Virus record (IMG/VR): IMGVR_UViG_2667527770_000007
Origin: a virus
Lineage: Duplodnaviria; Heunggongvirae; Uroviricota; Caudoviricetes
Strand: one strand, 5' to 3'
DNA length: 30,007 nucleotides
Of this stretch, positions 26,642-30,007 are shown in pieces. A program made the position numbers and the translations under genes. Positions within the stretch are counted from its first letter, which is position 1. Each line of letters starts with the position of its first letter. Under the pieces are notes generated by a model. That model had not been told where the DNA came from, made no database searches, and saw only the letters and a program-made list of their open reading frames with translations.

Positions 26642-26980
26642 CTATTTCCCTGAATTTACGACGAAACTGCTCGAGCGGACTGAAGCATTCATGTTCATAG
26701 CCTTCACGGAGGTAGATAACCCGTTGTGTTTCCGGCTCCCAACGAATGACTCTGACGGGCACTCCGTAGTGATCTTTGAACCAGCGGTTAACTTGTCGCA
26801 AAGGACTGTCTCCTTCTGCCGGTTGAAATCACCCACAGCCCACTCTGCAAAGCTGTGGGTTACAATTTCCCTGTCACCTGGTACATTCACTGCATAGCAA
26901 TACTCCACCTTCGCTTTTCCACCCGGTACAGGAAGCGCAATCAGTTGCGAGCGACGGTAGTGTGTTGTTAAACTGTTCAT
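26642..26980 (-). CDS. Hypothetical protein, probably frameshifted (C-terminal half better encoded in the overlapping frame 26589-26801)
   Basis: 112-aa ORF whose C-terminal 50 aa are low-complexity and Ser-rich, while the overlapping frame gives a protein-like sequence ([39 protein letters not shown]...) that only begins at a TTG. Confidence 0.4.
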
Positions 26981-27818: not shown

Positions 27819-27883
27819 ATGTAGGATATCCAACATACCAATGTCAAGAATCCTACATGGGCATGTGGTAGGATTGCCTACAT
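27819..27883. promoter_or_regulatory. OR operator region: three operators with half-site ATGTAGGA (OR1 27819-27836, OR2 27841-27858, OR3 27863-27883); PR for cro on the minus strand (-35 TTGACA at 27843-27848, -10 TACATT at 27819-27824); probable PRM with cI starting at or next to the transcript 5' end
   Basis: Near-perfect 18-bp palindrome ATGTAGGATATCCAACAT and two related sites at ~22-bp spacing between the divergent cro and cI starts; consensus hexamers with 18-bp spacer. Confidence 0.7.
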
Positions 27884-28535
27884 GATGAACATGAGTGATC
27901 GTATTCGCCAAAGGCGAAAAGAACTGAACCTGACACAACAAGCACTGGCTGATTTGACTGGTGTGAACCGTGTCACGGTTACTGGATGGGAAAAGGACGA
28001 CTACCAACCAAATGGAGCCAACCTTCAAGCCCTAGCCAACGCACTTAAATGCGATCCTCTGTGGCTTGTTAGCGGAAAAGGCTCGCCTGAACCAAAGATA
28101 AATCTAAAACCTGAAATATTCGCAGTTAAAAAAGTCCCCCTCATCTCGTGGGTTCAGGCGGGTTCATGGACAATGACGGAGCCTGGTGTCAGGAAAGAAG
28201 ATGCTGAAGAGTGGGTTTATACTACCGCCCTTGTATCAGAAATGGCATTTGCACTACGGGTCCGTGGTGATTCAATGACCAATCCCCTCGGCTCACCATC
28301 GATACCAGAAGGTTCTATCGTTATCGTAGAGCCAGATATTATTGATACAGAGTGTATTAACGGAAAAATCGTTGTTGCCCATATCAATGGTGGGCAAGAA
28401 GCGACACTCAAAAAATTTGTTGAGGACTGGCCGAACAGGTATCTCGTCCCACTAAATCCTAACTATAAAACTATTGAATGCGGTGAGAACTGCAGAATAG
28501 TTGGTCTTGTCAAACAAGTAATAATGGATTTTTGA
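27882..28535 (+). CDS. cI: CI-type prophage repressor (HTH_XRE N-terminal domain + S24 LexA-like peptidase domain)
   Basis: 217 aa; HTH region (LNLTQQALADLTGVNRVTVTGWEKDD) and S24 autocleavage domain with GDSM Ser motif and downstream Lys (ATLKKF). Confidence 0.85.
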   Translation: MMNMSDRIRQRRKELNLTQQALADLTGVNRVTVTGWEKDDYQPNGANLQALANALKCDPLWLVSGKGSPEPKINLKPEIFAVKKVPLISWVQAGSWTMTEPGVRKEDAEEWVYTTALVSEMAFALRVRGDSMTNPLGSPSIPEGSIVIVEPDIIDTECINGKIVVAHINGGQEATLKKFVEDWPNRYLVPLNPNYKTIECGENCRIVGLVKQVIMDF

Positions 28536-28555
28536 CACATCTTCCTCACTATCGC

Positions 28556-28582
28556 AAAACCGGGGTATCCCCGGTTTTTTTA
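28556..28582 (+). terminator. Intrinsic terminator downstream of cI
   Basis: AAAA-CCGGGG-TAT-CCCCGG-TTTTTTT: perfect 6-bp GC stem, 3-nt loop and 7-T tract, 20 nt after the cI stop; A-tract upstream suggests it may act in both directions. Confidence 0.8.
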
Positions 28583-28597
28583 TGAGCCTATCTTTTT

Positions 28598-28651
28598 ATG
28601 TAGGATAACCAACATAAACTCTTGACACTCACATGTTGGATATCCTACATT
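28598..28651 (+). promoter_or_regulatory. OL/PL: two operators (28598-28615 ATGTAGGATAACCAACAT; 28633-28650 ATGTTGGATATCCTACAT) flanking a rightward promoter (-35 TTGACA 28622-28627, 18-bp spacer, -10 TACATT 28646-28651)
   Basis: The second operator is the exact reverse complement of OR1; promoter architecture is identical to PR. Seen directly in sequence. Confidence 0.7.
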
Positions 28652-28661
28652 TGTTTTTAGA

Positions 28662-28676
28662 GTTGTGGTGAATGCG
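28662..28676 (+). repeat. 15-nt motif GTTGTGGTGAATGCG, copy 1 (at the predicted start of the PL transcript), followed by hairpin GCGCA-GGCTGA-TGCGC
   Basis: Exact 15/15 direct repeat with copy 2 at 29317-29331. Confidence 0.5.
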
Positions 28677-28768
28677 CAGGCTGATGCGCGAAAGACATTG
28701 CAGCTATTGCGGAAAAGAGCTGTTCGGCGGGGCCATTAAACGCCCGTATCTGGAGGTTAAAGAACAAA

Positions 28769-29044
28769 ATGAAAGTCCAGATTTTAAACAATAGTGGTGA
28801 AGTCGTTTGGTCATACGACATAGCCGCTCCTGTAGATCAGAGCGGCGATAGCTGGACCAATGGGAAACATCAGATTATGGCTGGAGTTGTATTCTCTTTA
28901 CGCCGTGCTTTGGAACAGGCTGAAGTATTTCCATCAGACCCTGAATGGAAATGGCCTTTTTCTATTTGTCCAAATTCGGAGAGTACATTTCAGAAAATTG
29001 GTCAGAAAGTCGCACTCGAAGAGCATCAGCCAACTGTTTCCTGA
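28769..29044 (+). CDS. Hypothetical protein, first sizeable ORF of the PL (early-left) operon
   Basis: 91-aa ORF with GGAGG 12 nt upstream; its 3' end overlaps the convergent ORF 28962-29207 by 83 nt, so the C-terminal extent is uncertain. Confidence 0.4.
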   Translation: MKVQILNNSGEVVWSYDIAAPVDQSGDSWTNGKHQIMAGVVFSLRRALEQAEVFPSDPEWKWPFSICPNSESTFQKIGQKVALEEHQPTVS

Positions 29045-29207
29045 TTTTTTCAGGTAGCTCGTCGGCATCGCAGAAACAACAACGCTCGATCATGTTGAAA
29101 GCCGATTCGTAGAACTGTTTCTGCTGAGTGTCGCTGAGACAGGAAAAGAGCGACGTTACGATGATTTTATTAATTGCATTATCAAGTTCTTTTTCATCAA
29201 AAGTCAT
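28962..29207 (-). CDS. Hypothetical protein encoded antisense to the PL operon
   Basis: 81-aa ORF (MTFDEKELDNAINKIIVTSLFSCLSDTQQKQFYESAFNMIERCCFCDADELPEK...) with a good RBS (AAAAGGAAAA, 6 nt before ATG). Confidence 0.45.
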   Translation of the reverse strand: MTFDEKELDNAINKIIVTSLFSCLSDTQQKQFYESAFNMIERCCFCDADELPEKIRKQLADALRVRLSDQFSEMYSPNLDK

Positions 29208-29316
29208 TTGATTTTCCTTTTATGTATACGGGCTTAAAAGGATACCACCGAGCCTGAAGTGGTGAAAAGACAGGCACATAACAGCTAAGTATTTTCAACC
29301 AAAGAGAATCCTTAGC

Positions 29317-29331
29317 GTTGTGGTGAATGCG
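29317..29331 (+). repeat. 15-nt motif GTTGTGGTGAATGCG, copy 2, at the start of a structured non-coding region
   Basis: Exact repeat of 28662-28676. Confidence 0.5.
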
Positions 29332-29463
29332 GCTCAGCGCACGCGGGTTAAGGTTGAGGCTGACAGTCGACCTTCTGTGGATACCCACCCGTCTGGTGTG
29401 CAACCTTCGCCAGGCACCGGGAGGCACCCGGCACCACAACTTTATGCTGTGTGTAGTCCCGGC

Positions 29464-29596
29464 GGTACCAGTTTGTACCCTTGCTTCCGGCTGGTACCGT
29501 CCTTTTTACAAAACAGAGAAGAGCATCACCGGACGACGGGCTCATAACCCAATCCATCCGGGCGGCTGCCACCGCAGGTGTTCTTCTCTGTTTTGT
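29464..29596 (+). ncRNA. Candidate structured RNA element: 8-bp stem (GGTACCAG, 29464-29471 / 29491-29498) followed by a 15-bp perfect inverted repeat (ACAAAACAGAGAAGA 29508-29522 / TCTTCTCTGTTTTGT 29582-29596) enclosing a 59-nt GC-rich insert
   Basis: Inverted repeats seen in sequence. The region has no convincing coding frame (the ORF-track frame 29327-30007 has an Arg/Cys/Trp-rich, non-protein-like N-terminal 100 aa). Function unknown. Confidence 0.35.
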
Positions 29597-29644
29597 GGAG
29601 AAACTAATCGGCCTTGCAGGGTCGATATGATGAGGAGCAGCAAA

Positions 29645-30007
29645 ATGGCTAGCGAACGCAGTACTGATGTGCAGGCATTTATCGGGGAGCTGGACGGCGG
29701 CGTATTTGAAACCAAAATCGGCGCAGTTCTCAGTGAAGTCGCTTCCGGTGTGATGAACACGAAAACCAAAGGTAAGGTCTCACTCAACCTGGAAATCGAA
29801 CCATTTGATGAGAACCGTGTGAAAATCAAACACAAACTCTCATATGTTCGCCCGACTAACCGCGGGAAAATTTCCGAAGAAGACACCACCGAAACGCCGA
29901 TGTATGTCAATCGCGGTGGTCGCCTGACTATTCTGCAGGAAGACCAGGGACAGTTACTGACTCTTGCCGGTGAACCTGACGGAAAACTCCGCGCAGCAGG
30001 TCGTTAA
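29645..30007 (+). CDS. Hypothetical early protein (120 aa), function unknown
   Basis: ATG at 29645 preceded by GAGGAG with 6-nt spacing; stop TAA at 30005-30007. The ORF-track N-terminal extension to 29327 is rejected. No family recognised. Confidence 0.55.
   Translation: MASERSTDVQAFIGELDGGVFETKIGAVLSEVASGVMNTKTKGKVSLNLEIEPFDENRVKIKHKLSYVRPTNRGKISEEDTTETPMYVNRGGRLTILQEDQGQLLTLAGEPDGKLRAAGR

Follow-up and report, generated by a model that had tools for sequence, protein, structure and literature searches.

Several described phage and tRNA-related RNAs provide the background to the region analysed here. PasD and EcOnc27/sRNA103 are Hfq-bound sRNAs that end at an intrinsic terminator, while the P4 CI RNA and the C4 RNA of P1 and P7 are tRNA-like immunity RNAs. 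In phage lambda, RNase III processes the large hairpin of the N leader. Known mimics of tRNA include the thrS operator, viral tRNA-like structures and D-armless mitochondrial tRNAs. The put element consists of two stem-loops in a V shape, is about 70 nt long, and binds the zinc-binding domain of the β' subunit (PMC9378689).

The sequence analysed is a stretch of 30,007 nt, referred to here as the window. It has 99.8% identity to SfV, a Shigella phage, and represents an SfV-like lambdoid prophage. The interval of interest, 29317-29630, belongs to the early-left operon and is read on the + strand; pL and a cI-like gene precede it, a layout that agrees with the SfV annotation. The main features are as follows.

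27882-28535: cI-like S24 repressor gene; pL sits between this gene and the leader
28622-28651, + strand: pL-type sigma-70 promoter (TTGACA-18-TACATT; 10/12 in the promoter scan), which drives the early-left operon
28659-28747, + strand: A', a truncated 5' copy of another variant of module A, of the mEp460 type
29317-29440, + strand: module A, a multi-helix structured sRNA domain (Rfam match, covariation)
29445-29458, + strand: UGCUGUGUGUAGUC, a probably single-stranded stretch between module A and terminator B
29461-29507, + strand: module B, a predicted intrinsic terminator (RNAfold, inverted repeat)
29508-29596, + strand: module C, a three-way-junction RNA (model R1, 86.6 bits; covariation)
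29607-29626, + strand: hairpin D, with loop UUGCAG, directly 5' of the yfdP ribosome-binding site (from the fold)
29632-37, + strand: Shine-Dalgarno sequence GAGGAG of yfdP
within 29632-30007, + strand: yfdP (orf32), 120 aa, ATG at 29645, the first gene past the leader (ORF list, annotation)

Folding of 29300-29645 as + strand RNA gives -147.2 kcal/mol, compared with -119.8 +/- 4.8 kcal/mol for dinucleotide shuffles (z = -5.7, with 0/100 shuffles as good); the - strand of the same interval reaches z = -3.1. The strong structure described in the initial annotation of this DNA is therefore real. It had been taken as one unit of about 300 bp, but it is made up of three RNA modules (A, B and C), each of which is conserved independently. 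The same annotation had proposed covariation analysis and a search of RNA families. The stems prove to be kept in relatives through compensatory changes, and the family search gives a sub-threshold STnc100 match for module A and no Rfam match for module C. We consider it probable that the leader of the SfV-type pL operon consists of an sRNA/attenuator unit, formed by A and B, followed by a separate tRNA-like processing/stability module, C.

The long frame through the region had been judged not to be protein-like, and indeed no ORF crossing the region has a Pfam match; the 226-aa frame that is fused to yfdP is an artefact of the G+C-rich sequence. At gathering thresholds, Rfam finds nothing in the whole window. 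With E <= 10, the matches to Termite-leu, mir-9412 and ftsZ-DE are weak chance matches, leaving STnc100 as the sole credible one.

The truncated copy A' begins about 8 nt past the -10 element of pL; the 3' strand of the closing stem is missing from it. It is the same at 87 of 89 nt as the 5' part of a complete mEp460 element (L007 1351-1439), and it has the 15-mer GTTGTGGTGAATGCG in common with module A. The promoter scan found no promoter-like site between terminator B and yfdP. In an informal comparison, relatives show at the position of hairpin D a hairpin whose stem covaries and whose loop is YGCAG. Among 5426 complete E. coli genomes, 2864 match the query region, and 1736 of these contain 80% of it or more; modules A, B and C have been lost from CPS-53 of E. 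coli K-12. A mosaic boundary with Stx/mEp460-type phages runs inside the region, at about 29461. Among complements of the region's 9-mers over the whole window, there is a 15-nt repeat at 26984-98 besides the internal stems.

The STnc100 model (RF02076) aligns with 29295-29510 over its full length (1-206), with 40.5 bits and E 5.6e-7, not reaching the gathering score of 47. Canonical copies score 77-131 bits against RF02076, and the SfV-type relatives in phiES15, ST64B and P1 score 33-41 bits. In the RF02076 alignment, module A shows the closing helix round several hairpins, together with the UGGUGAAU and CACCGGGAGGCACCCGGCACCA blocks. Its parts are:

29317-25/29432-40, + strand: closing stem, 9 bp
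29322-28, + strand: invariant GGUGAAU
29343-48/29387-92, + strand: helix GCGGGU/ACCCGU
29393-98/29408-13, + strand: hairpin, whose loop CAACCUU (29401-07) pairs with AAGGUUG (29350-56)
29417-31, + strand: hairpin CCGGG-AGGCA-CCCGG

The last of these hairpins had been recognised in the initial annotation, where the closing stem had gone unnoticed. Invariant 5' and 3' blocks, a covarying closing stem (for example GUUGCGGUG/CACCGCAAC in phage P1) and a covarying long-range pairing, which differs between subtypes, are common to 99 unique copies of module A. In the middle of the module, where the MAFFT alignment is out of structural register, per-sequence duplex tests replaced the counting of pairs. 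A hairpin with a T-run is found within 120 nt of the module in 62/99 unique copies, and 24/99 start at +1 of a strong early-type promoter; many copies end at a terminator. Copies are also found downstream of stx2B and within RNA-gene arrays. For the SfV-type copy no convincing promoter of its own was found, the best candidate scoring 6/12. Judged by its sequence, module A is a divergent member of the STnc100/PasD prophage sRNA family. It adds sub-families that are missed at Rfam's threshold to a family that is known but functionally unexplained.

Between module A and the terminator, UGCUGUGUGUAGUC has no more than one change in ST64B, phiES15 and several prophages of Enterobacterales, the terminators of which are not alike in sequence. 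The stretch may serve the sRNA as its seed or as a contact region for Hfq. The stem that follows had been described as 8 bp with a 19-nt loop. Its location and the 19 nt between its arms were correct, but the stem has 9 bp (CGGTACCAG/CTGGTACCG, 29463-71/29491-99), and RNAfold lengthens it to 13 bp (29461-73/29489-501). The 13-bp hairpin of module B, of which the GGTACCAG stem is the core, has three G-U pairs and a 15-nt loop, and is followed by C and UUUUU (29503-07). It was overlooked by a simple terminator scan, which had a loop limit of 8 nt. At the equivalent position in ST64B and phiES15 there is a T-run after a hairpin of unrelated sequence. With a G+C-rich hairpin directly before a U-run, module B is, in its predicted fold, an intrinsic terminator. 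A simple cluster of Rho-independent terminators, which the initial annotation had named as a finding that would overturn its reading, describes only one of the three stems, the GGTACCAG hairpin.

Module C has the following parts.

29508-27/29577-96, + strand: helix P1, 20 bp, with two G-U pairs
29529-35/29555-61, + strand: P2 outer stem
29536-37/29551-54, + strand: internal loop AC/AAUC
29538-50, + strand: tip GGG-CUCAUAA-CCC
29562-65/29572-75, + strand: helix P3

The initial annotation reported a perfect inverted repeat of 15 nt around a 59-nt insert. The repeat is present (29508-22/29582-96), but it is merely the outer part of the 20-bp closing helix, and the insert is a conserved core. In alignment A1, 92% of cells are paired and 13 pairs are changed on both sides, compared with about 40% paired in slid controls. 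Alignment A4 has 33 distinct rows from 35 matches in genome contigs; 94.5% of its cells are paired, and 19 of the 22 pairs are compensatory. The invariance of the tip is partly by construction, most loci having been retrieved with an exact pattern spanning it; blastn found the Klebsiella and P1 copies through the tip segment. The sequence at 29537-29550, CGGGCTCATAACCC, is identical at 14/14 nt to the anticodon arm of E. coli metZ, an initiator tRNA. Three G-C pairs in the anticodon stem mark initiator tRNAs, and with CAU and three such pairs the tip has the make-up of an initiator-type arm.

Module C is not recognised as a real tRNA. ARAGORN finds 0 genes in the window and, at default settings, calls module C neither in standard nor in mitochondrial mode. 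The Rfam tRNA model matches only the true neighbouring tRNAs, and Rfam as a whole gives no match to module C even at E <= 10. The copy in the window has no acceptor-like NCCA end, the 20-bp P1 helix being followed by GGAGAAAC.

The module is present in at least 120 IMG/VR viral contigs and in about 27 Enterobacterales species, always in leaders or RNA-gene arrays. The genes found 3' of it are yfdP-like (69 copies), rdgC-like (13), tciA of phage P1, and holin genes. In phage P1 and other phages it stands immediately upstream of module A. In 11 of 13 Klebsiella-type loci, a tandem tRNA array ends with module C; in two of the loci (L003 and L028) it is spaced by 5 nt, the tRNAs of the array being themselves 5-6 nt apart. 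RCCA follows it in 14/14 Klebsiella-type copies. Helix P1 has 7-9 bp in the P1-phage and Klebsiella-type copies, compared with 20 bp here, and loop positions 32 and 38 are changed in the P1-phage copies.

As to how such a leader might work, module A, the single-stranded stretch and terminator B would together form one transcription unit of the STnc100/PasD kind. We infer that termination at 29503-07 would release an sRNA of roughly 190 nt. The 'prophage sRNA' suggested for this DNA in the initial annotation fits one part of the region, 29317-29507, with its divergent STnc100/PasD-type domain and terminator. Terminator B would act as an attenuator, such that pL transcription would reach yfdP, yfdQ, yfdR ... 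xis and int through read-through only, and module C would be present in read-through transcripts only.

The role of module C is the most conjectural part of this scheme. Its 20-bp P1 helix, which would be longer if the U-tract pairs with GGAGA, has a length suited to RNase III, like the hairpin in the leader of lambda N. About two turns of uninterrupted duplex before the first gene are the architecture of an RNase III site, and this helix may be cleaved. Module C may be an RNA-processing/stability module standing between the RNA gene upstream and the mRNA downstream and keeping the two apart, and a conserved tRNA-metabolism factor of the host may recognise its P2 arm. A 'processing structure', which had been proposed for the region in general, is for now the most plausible reading of the large inverted repeat. 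As the long P1 helix is restricted to pL-type copies, RNase III cannot be the common function of the module C family. It also counts against processing that a processing signal alone would not require a tip as conserved as that of module C.

A different role for module A, which we regard as possible though on balance unlikely, is that of a trans-acting immunity RNA of the P4 CI/P1 C4 kind, in which the prophage RNA would pair with the leader of a superinfecting phage and cause premature termination. A 2007 paper by Roberts et al. reportedly has transcription-termination-mediated immunity in SfV as its title. PMC3475682 cites that work for superinfection immunity via a non-coding RNA, and title and citation together point towards such a mechanism. 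So do the terminator directly 3' of module A and the arrangement of its sequence, in which conserved scaffolds frame a hypervariable pair of segments that is always self-complementary, the pattern expected of a specificity determinant. However, both complementary segments are within one closed domain, Rfam C4 gives no match, and a second, downstream target copy is not enriched within 600 nt. For the module A hairpin loop, the longest cognate downstream match was shorter than 7 nt in 61 of 93 copies and 9 nt at best, and in these 93 copies cognate matches were no better than those to non-cognate flanks.

For module C, we put forward tentatively, and as a rather doubtful proposal, that it may represent a previously undescribed class of phage RNA, an initiator-tRNA anticodon-arm mimic that would act on a conserved host or defence factor reading that arm. 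As a decoy it might titrate an anticodon-loop nuclease, for instance the tRNA-fMet-cleaving VapC/MvpT toxins of enteric bacteria; alternatively, it might be a ligand of IF3, MetRS or the P site of the 30S subunit. The Klebsiella-type copies would then represent tRNA-like RNAs that lack a D arm and mature together with the tRNA array. The 14-nt identity to metZ, including the three initiator-typical G-C pairs, is in favour, as is the constancy of the tip while all flanking helices covary. Membership of tRNA arrays, tRNA-like spacing and RCCA argue in the same direction, and in Klebsiella-type copies helix P1 (6-7 bp) and P3 (6 bp) add up to about 12 bp, resembling an acceptor/T stack. A VapC that cleaves tRNA-fMet moreover occurs in Shigella, the host of SfV: the VapC toxins of Salmonella and Shigella cut this tRNA in the anticodon stem-loop (PMC7180214). 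The resemblance is nevertheless incomplete. Under the three G-C pairs, the internal loop (AC/AAUC) replaces two more pairs; the changes at loop positions 32 and 38 in P1-phage copies, the 20-bp P1 helix without CCA in pL-type copies, and the rejection of module C by ARAGORN and the Rfam tRNA model also speak against mimicry. Full-text literature searches found no description of a phage initiator-tRNA anticodon mimic.

It is unlikely that module A is instead a put-like antiterminator acting in cis, whose nascent fold would make RNA polymerase resistant to the next and later terminators. The placement is suggestive: the 24 of 99 unique copies that begin at +1 of strong early-type promoters, and likewise the truncated A' at the window's own pL, have the equivalent position to HK022 putL, and no N gene was seen between pL and the terminator in these phages. 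An antiterminator would also be in keeping with the intricate, conserved fold of module A, its invariant nucleotides and the terminators downstream of it. Yet module A is unlike put in sequence and architecture, and a search of the HK022 early region for conserved blocks found none at a meaningful place and no shared motifs. Copies downstream of stx2B and inside RNA-gene arrays do not fit either. Relatives accumulate as short, terminated, Hfq-bound sRNAs, which implies efficient termination right behind the element.

Quite improbable is a thrS operator-like function, in which module C and hairpin D would form a cis translational operator of the first early-left gene. This would account for the regular order in pL-type copies, where C, a Shine-Dalgarno-like GGAGAA, D and the real Shine-Dalgarno sequence are always at most about 50-70 nt away from the start codon. 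It does not account for the variety of downstream genes (yfdP-like, rdgC-like, tciA, holin), nor for the tRNA arrays and phage P1, where an RNA gene or terminator comes next and there is no start codon. No segment complementary to the tip was found in the start region, and complements of the tip in the window are 8-9-mers at chance level. A leader peptide from GUG/AUG-GAG-AAA past module C was considered separately and rejected, this stretch varying as a covarying hairpin and not as a conserved peptide.

Finally, the idea that the inverted repeats are sites at the DNA level (for recombination, replication or protein binding, the first and last of which the initial annotation had listed) or chance palindromes is largely refuted and very improbable: the repeat is perfect over 15 bp and the mosaic boundary at about 29461 falls within the region, but the reading is unsupported because the helices are kept via compensatory changes (13 pairs in A1 and 19 in A4 changed on both sides) and contain many G-U pairs, which are strand-specific in that the other strand would have A-C mismatches, and against it are also the far better folding of the + strand and the constant orientation relative to promoters, terminators and tRNA genes.

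The position of module A at the head of early operons connects its family with attenuation of transcription, and perhaps with the RNA-based immunity reported for SfV. Module C is the more interesting part, being strongly covarying, without an Rfam family, and found in many Enterobacterales prophages, in phage P1 and in Klebsiella phages. Its tip reproduces the anticodon loop of the initiator tRNA exactly, and certain phages have the module as what looks like an additional gene of the tRNA array. Should it be a tRNA mimic, it would bring a new player into the current debate over the reasons for phage tRNA genes and the means by which phages withstand anticodon nucleases; should it be only a processing signal, it would still be a useful annotation for thousands of prophages.

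Compared with the known systems, module A is closest to STnc100/PasD/EcOnc27. In common with them it has a stem that closes the domain, a hairpin after GGUGAAU, the ACCGGGAGGCACCCGGCACC block, a middle part that varies and, on the 3' side, an intrinsic terminator, as well as a prophage location beside other RNA genes. It differs in its first hairpin, which is GCGGCUCAGCGC and not CCCCCUGUGCGGAGGGG, in its middle and pre-terminator stretch, in a score under the gathering score, and in its setting within the pL operon, where it has no clear promoter to itself. Like P4 CI and P1-P7 C4, it is a small structured RNA from a phage immunity/early region with a loop that pairs within its own transcript, and immunity based on ncRNA and termination has been reported for the early region of SfV; unlike them, it has no Rfam C4 match and no downstream target copy, and its complementary segments are inside one domain. 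It resembles HK022 put in being a structured RNA that comes just after early promoters and 5' of terminators, the lambdoid phages concerned having no N gene there. However, module A forms a closed domain of several helices, its sequence is not similar to that of put, and in its relatives efficient termination follows.

Module C can be set beside two systems. As with the RNase III hairpin of the lambda N leader, a large hairpin with a duplex of at least 20 bp stands between a pL-proximal RNA signal and the first early-left ribosome-binding site. There is no sequence relation, however, and the hairpin here holds a conserved three-way junction; the long duplex is missing in the P1-phage and Klebsiella-type copies. 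From the known tRNA mimics module C differs in being without a D arm and T-loop sequence, in the internal loop below its 3-bp anticodon stem, and in being missed by tRNA finders; the copy in the window is furthermore inside an mRNA leader, with a 20-bp helix P1 and no CCA. What it shares with them is a copy of an anticodon stem-loop, to which the Klebsiella-type adds about 12 bp of acceptor/T-like helices, RCCA and the setting of a tRNA array.

The window is SfV-like lambdoid prophage DNA. Over 29200-29660, identity to phage SfV is 99.8%, and to SfII, SfIV and several other phages of E. coli 96-98%. This query is matched in 2864 of 5426 complete E. coli genomes, with a coverage of 80% or more in 1736 of them. 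The mEp460, cdtI and Stx phages are homologous only from about 29461 onwards. The early-left region of SfV has, on one strand, cI (the S24 repressor), a terminator, pL, orf33, a predicted terminator, a non-coding stretch, orf32 (yfdP), and orf31 through to xis and int. A promoter scan of the window found no further plus-strand promoter-like sites between pL and yfdP. The features are as follows.

28622-28651, plus strand: pL (TTGACA-18-TACATT)
28659-28747, plus strand: A', a truncated 5' copy of the mEp460-type variant of module A, at the pL transcription start (87 of 89 nt agree with the 5' portion of the full mEp460 element)
28962-29207, minus strand: unannotated antisense 81-aa ORF, beginning MTFDEKELDNAINK
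29317-29440, plus strand: module A, STnc100/PasD-type RNA domain
29461-29507, plus strand: module B, intrinsic terminator
29508-29596, plus strand: module C, three-way-junction RNA

The initial annotation treated 29317-29630 as a single structured, non-coding region. Folding agrees with strong structure: the plus strand of 29300-29645 gives -147.2 kcal/mol (z = -5.7 relative to dinucleotide shuffles; minus strand, z = -3.1). All of the stems listed are present, together with an unlisted 9-bp stem (29317-25/29432-40), and no ORF that crosses the region matches Pfam. It is however not one unit, but splits into three modules with separate evolutionary histories. It is worth adding that a 226-aa open frame (29327-30007, plus strand) extends, with no stop codon, from within module A into yfdP. 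Arg, Cys and Pro are abundant in its first 106 residues, which lie over covarying RNA helices; the frame is very probably an artefact, open to mis-annotation by gene callers as a long YfdP.

The suggested search of RNA families reported nothing at Rfam gathering thresholds. With relaxed thresholds, the full STnc100 model (RF02076) aligns to 29295-29510 (40.5 bits, E 5.6e-7), a span that includes module A, while module C has no match even at E <= 10. The STnc100 model scores 33-41 bits for the SfV-type relatives in phiES15, ST64B and phage P1 and 77-131 bits for canonical copies in other phage contigs, and does not detect the mEp460-type variant. Because of these scores, we regard module A as a divergent STnc100 sub-family, lying outside the family by Rfam's own criterion.

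The 3' block ACCGGGARGCACCCGGCACC was found by pattern scan in at least 120 viral contigs, often several times in one contig. The 99 unique copies of A have in common a 5' GGUGAAU and hairpin, the 3' block, a hypervariable middle and a covarying closing stem (GUUGCGGUG/CACCGCAAC in phage P1, GUUGUGGUG/CACCACAAC in the window). The outer pairs of this stem occur in 65 different combinations, and its outer positions are 71.5% paired, compared to 60.5% (maximum 63.8%) with shuffled partners. The segment 3' of the first hairpin also pairs at long range with the loop of the hairpin preceding the 3' block:

Window: AAGGUUG/CAACCUU
phiES15: AAGGCUG/CAGCCUU
Phage P1: UGGUUAU/AUAACCA
Other sub-types: CCAGUC/GACUGG, AUCAGC/GCUGAU and many more

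Cognate segments form stabler duplexes than non-cognate ones (-15.5 vs -13.6 kcal/mol, Mann-Whitney p = 5e-8), and the fold of module A is compact and pseudoknotted.

Published members of the STnc100/PasD family are Hfq-associated prophage sRNAs with no assigned function. They include PasD1/2 (adjoining gene Q), EcOnc27/sRNA103 (downstream of stx2B) and STnc100, all with an intrinsic terminator at the end. Of our 99 copies, 24 have the closing stem about 3 nt downstream of a strong promoter (TTGACx-17/18-TAxxxT), placing them exactly at its +1. The SfV-type copy lacks one (best candidate, 6/12) and must therefore come from pL or read-through. Canonical STnc100 copies and module C are also seen in polycistronic RNA-gene arrays: a Stx-type contig (L129 8044-8560, minus strand) has, in this order, tRNA-Met, two tRNA-Arg and STnc100, and the phage P1 ban operon (L002, 68.8-71.0 kb) has, likewise in order, a dicF-like region, tRNA-Asn, tRNA-Thr, module C, module A, tciABC and tRNA-Ile.

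Module B is a 13-bp hairpin followed by a C residue and UUUUU; the GGTACCAG stem noted initially is real, but forms only the centre of this terminator hairpin. Hairpins of unrelated sequence with a T-run occupy the same position in ST64B and phiES15, and 62 of the 99 copies of A have a hairpin and T-run within 120 nt. Between A and B, UGCUGUGUGUAGUC (29445-58) is nearly unchanged in lineages with differing terminators, as expected of a seed or Hfq-contact region, which it may be.

The copy A' lacks the 3' strand and 3' half of the mEp460-type element. It shares with module A the 15-mer GTTGTGGTGAATGCG (28661-75 and 29317-31), which looks like a recombination joint of the mosaic; such a joint would have put orf33 and the antisense 81-aa ORF between A' and A. 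This ORF has no Pfam match. Just upstream of it is a minus-strand terminator-like hairpin and T-run (29244-29263), and the SfV annotation has a weak plus-strand terminator (TCAAA-AGTCA-TTTGA plus TTTTCCTTTT) over its start, at about 29195-29227.

In module C, the 15-bp perfect inverted repeat originally described exists, but as the outer part of a 20-bp helix, P1, the closing helix of a three-way junction. The P2 arm consists of a 7-bp outer stem, an internal loop that is invariant (AC/AAUC) and the tip GGG-CUCAUAA-CCC, and P3 is a 4-bp hairpin in the window. The core was found by blastn in Klebsiella phages and phage P1, and an exact-pattern scan found C in at least 120 viral contigs. Comparison of homologous regions, as had been proposed, revealed compensatory changes in the flanking helices of C as well as in the closing stem of A. 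Across 25 diverse copies of C, 92% of the structure is paired and 13 pairs carry changes in both partners, against about 40% paired in controls with partners slid by 1-3 columns. An independent set, from a collection with one genome per species (35 matches, 33 distinct rows), is 94.5% paired, with 19 of 22 pairs compensatory. The exceptions are the three invariant G-C pairs of the tip. The invariance of the tip is inflated because most loci were fetched with a pattern covering it, a selection that leaves the flanking-helix covariation unaffected; ST64B and the second C copy in L266 show slight tip variation. The many G-U pairs imply that the plus strand is the functional one. A genome scan gave 50 exact matches in 596 Gb, of which an estimated 35 or so could be chance; the model separates them, with 29 matches at 42 bits or more. 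Of these, 27 are in Enterobacterales, and the others are in an Acidobacteriaceae MAG (42 bits) and in a genome that bears the label Chryseobacterium sp. (71 bits), where the contig may be a contaminant.

Positions 29537-50 of C (CGGGCTCATAACCC) are identical to the anticodon arm of metZ, an initiator tRNA of E. coli. C ends a tandem tRNA array in 11 of the 13 Klebsiella-type loci; the gap to the preceding tRNA is 5 nt in L003 and L028, and the array tRNAs of L028 are 5-6 nt apart. RCCA follows the 3' strand of helix P1 in all 14 Klebsiella-type copies, where P1 (6-7 bp) and P3 (6 bp) together make about 12 bp, the length of a tRNA acceptor/T stack. ARAGORN does not call module C. In phage P1 and three other loci (L266, L073, L119) C precedes a module A by 4-5 nt, SfV-type phages have the order A, terminator, C, and few canonical STnc100 loci have C nearby, so that A and C are separable. 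The genes downstream of C are yfdP-like (69 copies), rdgC-like (13), phage P1 tciA and holin genes, which ties C to leaders and RNA-gene arrays rather than to a particular protein.

The pL-type copies of C keep a constant order of terminator U-tract, long P1, GGAGAA, small YGCAG-loop hairpin, SD and start codon. Small hairpins with a UUGCAG/YGCAG loop recur just 5' of the first gene's ribosome-binding site (29607-29626, plus strand, in the window) and in P3 of many C copies (L273, L244, L240); they may share a motif for protein binding or processing. The 15-mer TTGTGGAGAAACTAA, directly after C (29593-29607, plus strand), recurs in the rightward operon (26998-26984, minus strand; chance expectation about 0.02), where its GGAG is the Shine-Dalgarno of a 112-aa ORF starting at 26980. 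The two copies may share a role in translation initiation or mark a mosaic boundary. The yfdO-yfdP spacer of E. coli K-12 CPS-53 (L236 7380-7520) has lost modules A, B and C, and has in their place iteron-like tandem repeats of about 20 nt (CAGATTTTGACGGGT). A weak Termite-leu match in Rfam (28541-28623, minus strand, 21.7 bits against a cut-off of 51) lies over the cI terminator hairpin AAAACCGGGGTATCCCCGGTTTT and was judged a chance match to a bidirectional terminator.

We consider it reasonably probable that the leader combines an sRNA (A), a gating terminator and a tRNA-like processing module (C), with most of the uncertainty on C. The reading starts from what the sequences show: the folds, the relationship of A to its family, the terminator, a stretch free of promoters between B and yfdP, and the genomic contexts. 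Transcripts from pL or read-through would mostly stop at 29503-07, giving an STnc100-type sRNA, and the terminator would also gate the delayed-early genes. Termination-mediated immunity has been reported for SfV (Roberts et al. 2007, which PMC3475682 cites in connection with superinfection immunity through non-coding RNA). Read-through RNA would fold into C, whose duplex of at least 20 bp is a plausible RNase III site; the lambda N-leader hairpin is such a site. The tRNA-like core of C suggests recognition by tRNA-processing or tRNA-binding factors.

Of the alternatives, a P4/C4-like trans-acting immunity RNA for A is unlikely; its expected second target site was not found. It is quite unlikely that C imitates the anticodon arm of the initiator tRNA as a decoy or ligand, for example against VapC toxins, which in Shigella and Salmonella cleave tRNA-fMet (PMC7180214). 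The promoter-proximal placement of A would suit a put-like cis antiterminator, but A has no similarity to put and termination is efficient in its relatives, making this distinctly improbable. A cis translational operator fits the contexts and covariation of C poorly and is very improbable, and repeats acting as a DNA site, which fit them poorly too, can practically be dismissed.

Module A adds a new branch, below the Rfam threshold, to a known family. For module C there is no Rfam family, and a literature search with most subscription journals outside its range found no earlier description, although one may exist; C is new within a known kind, the tRNA-like or anticodon-arm-mimicking RNAs.
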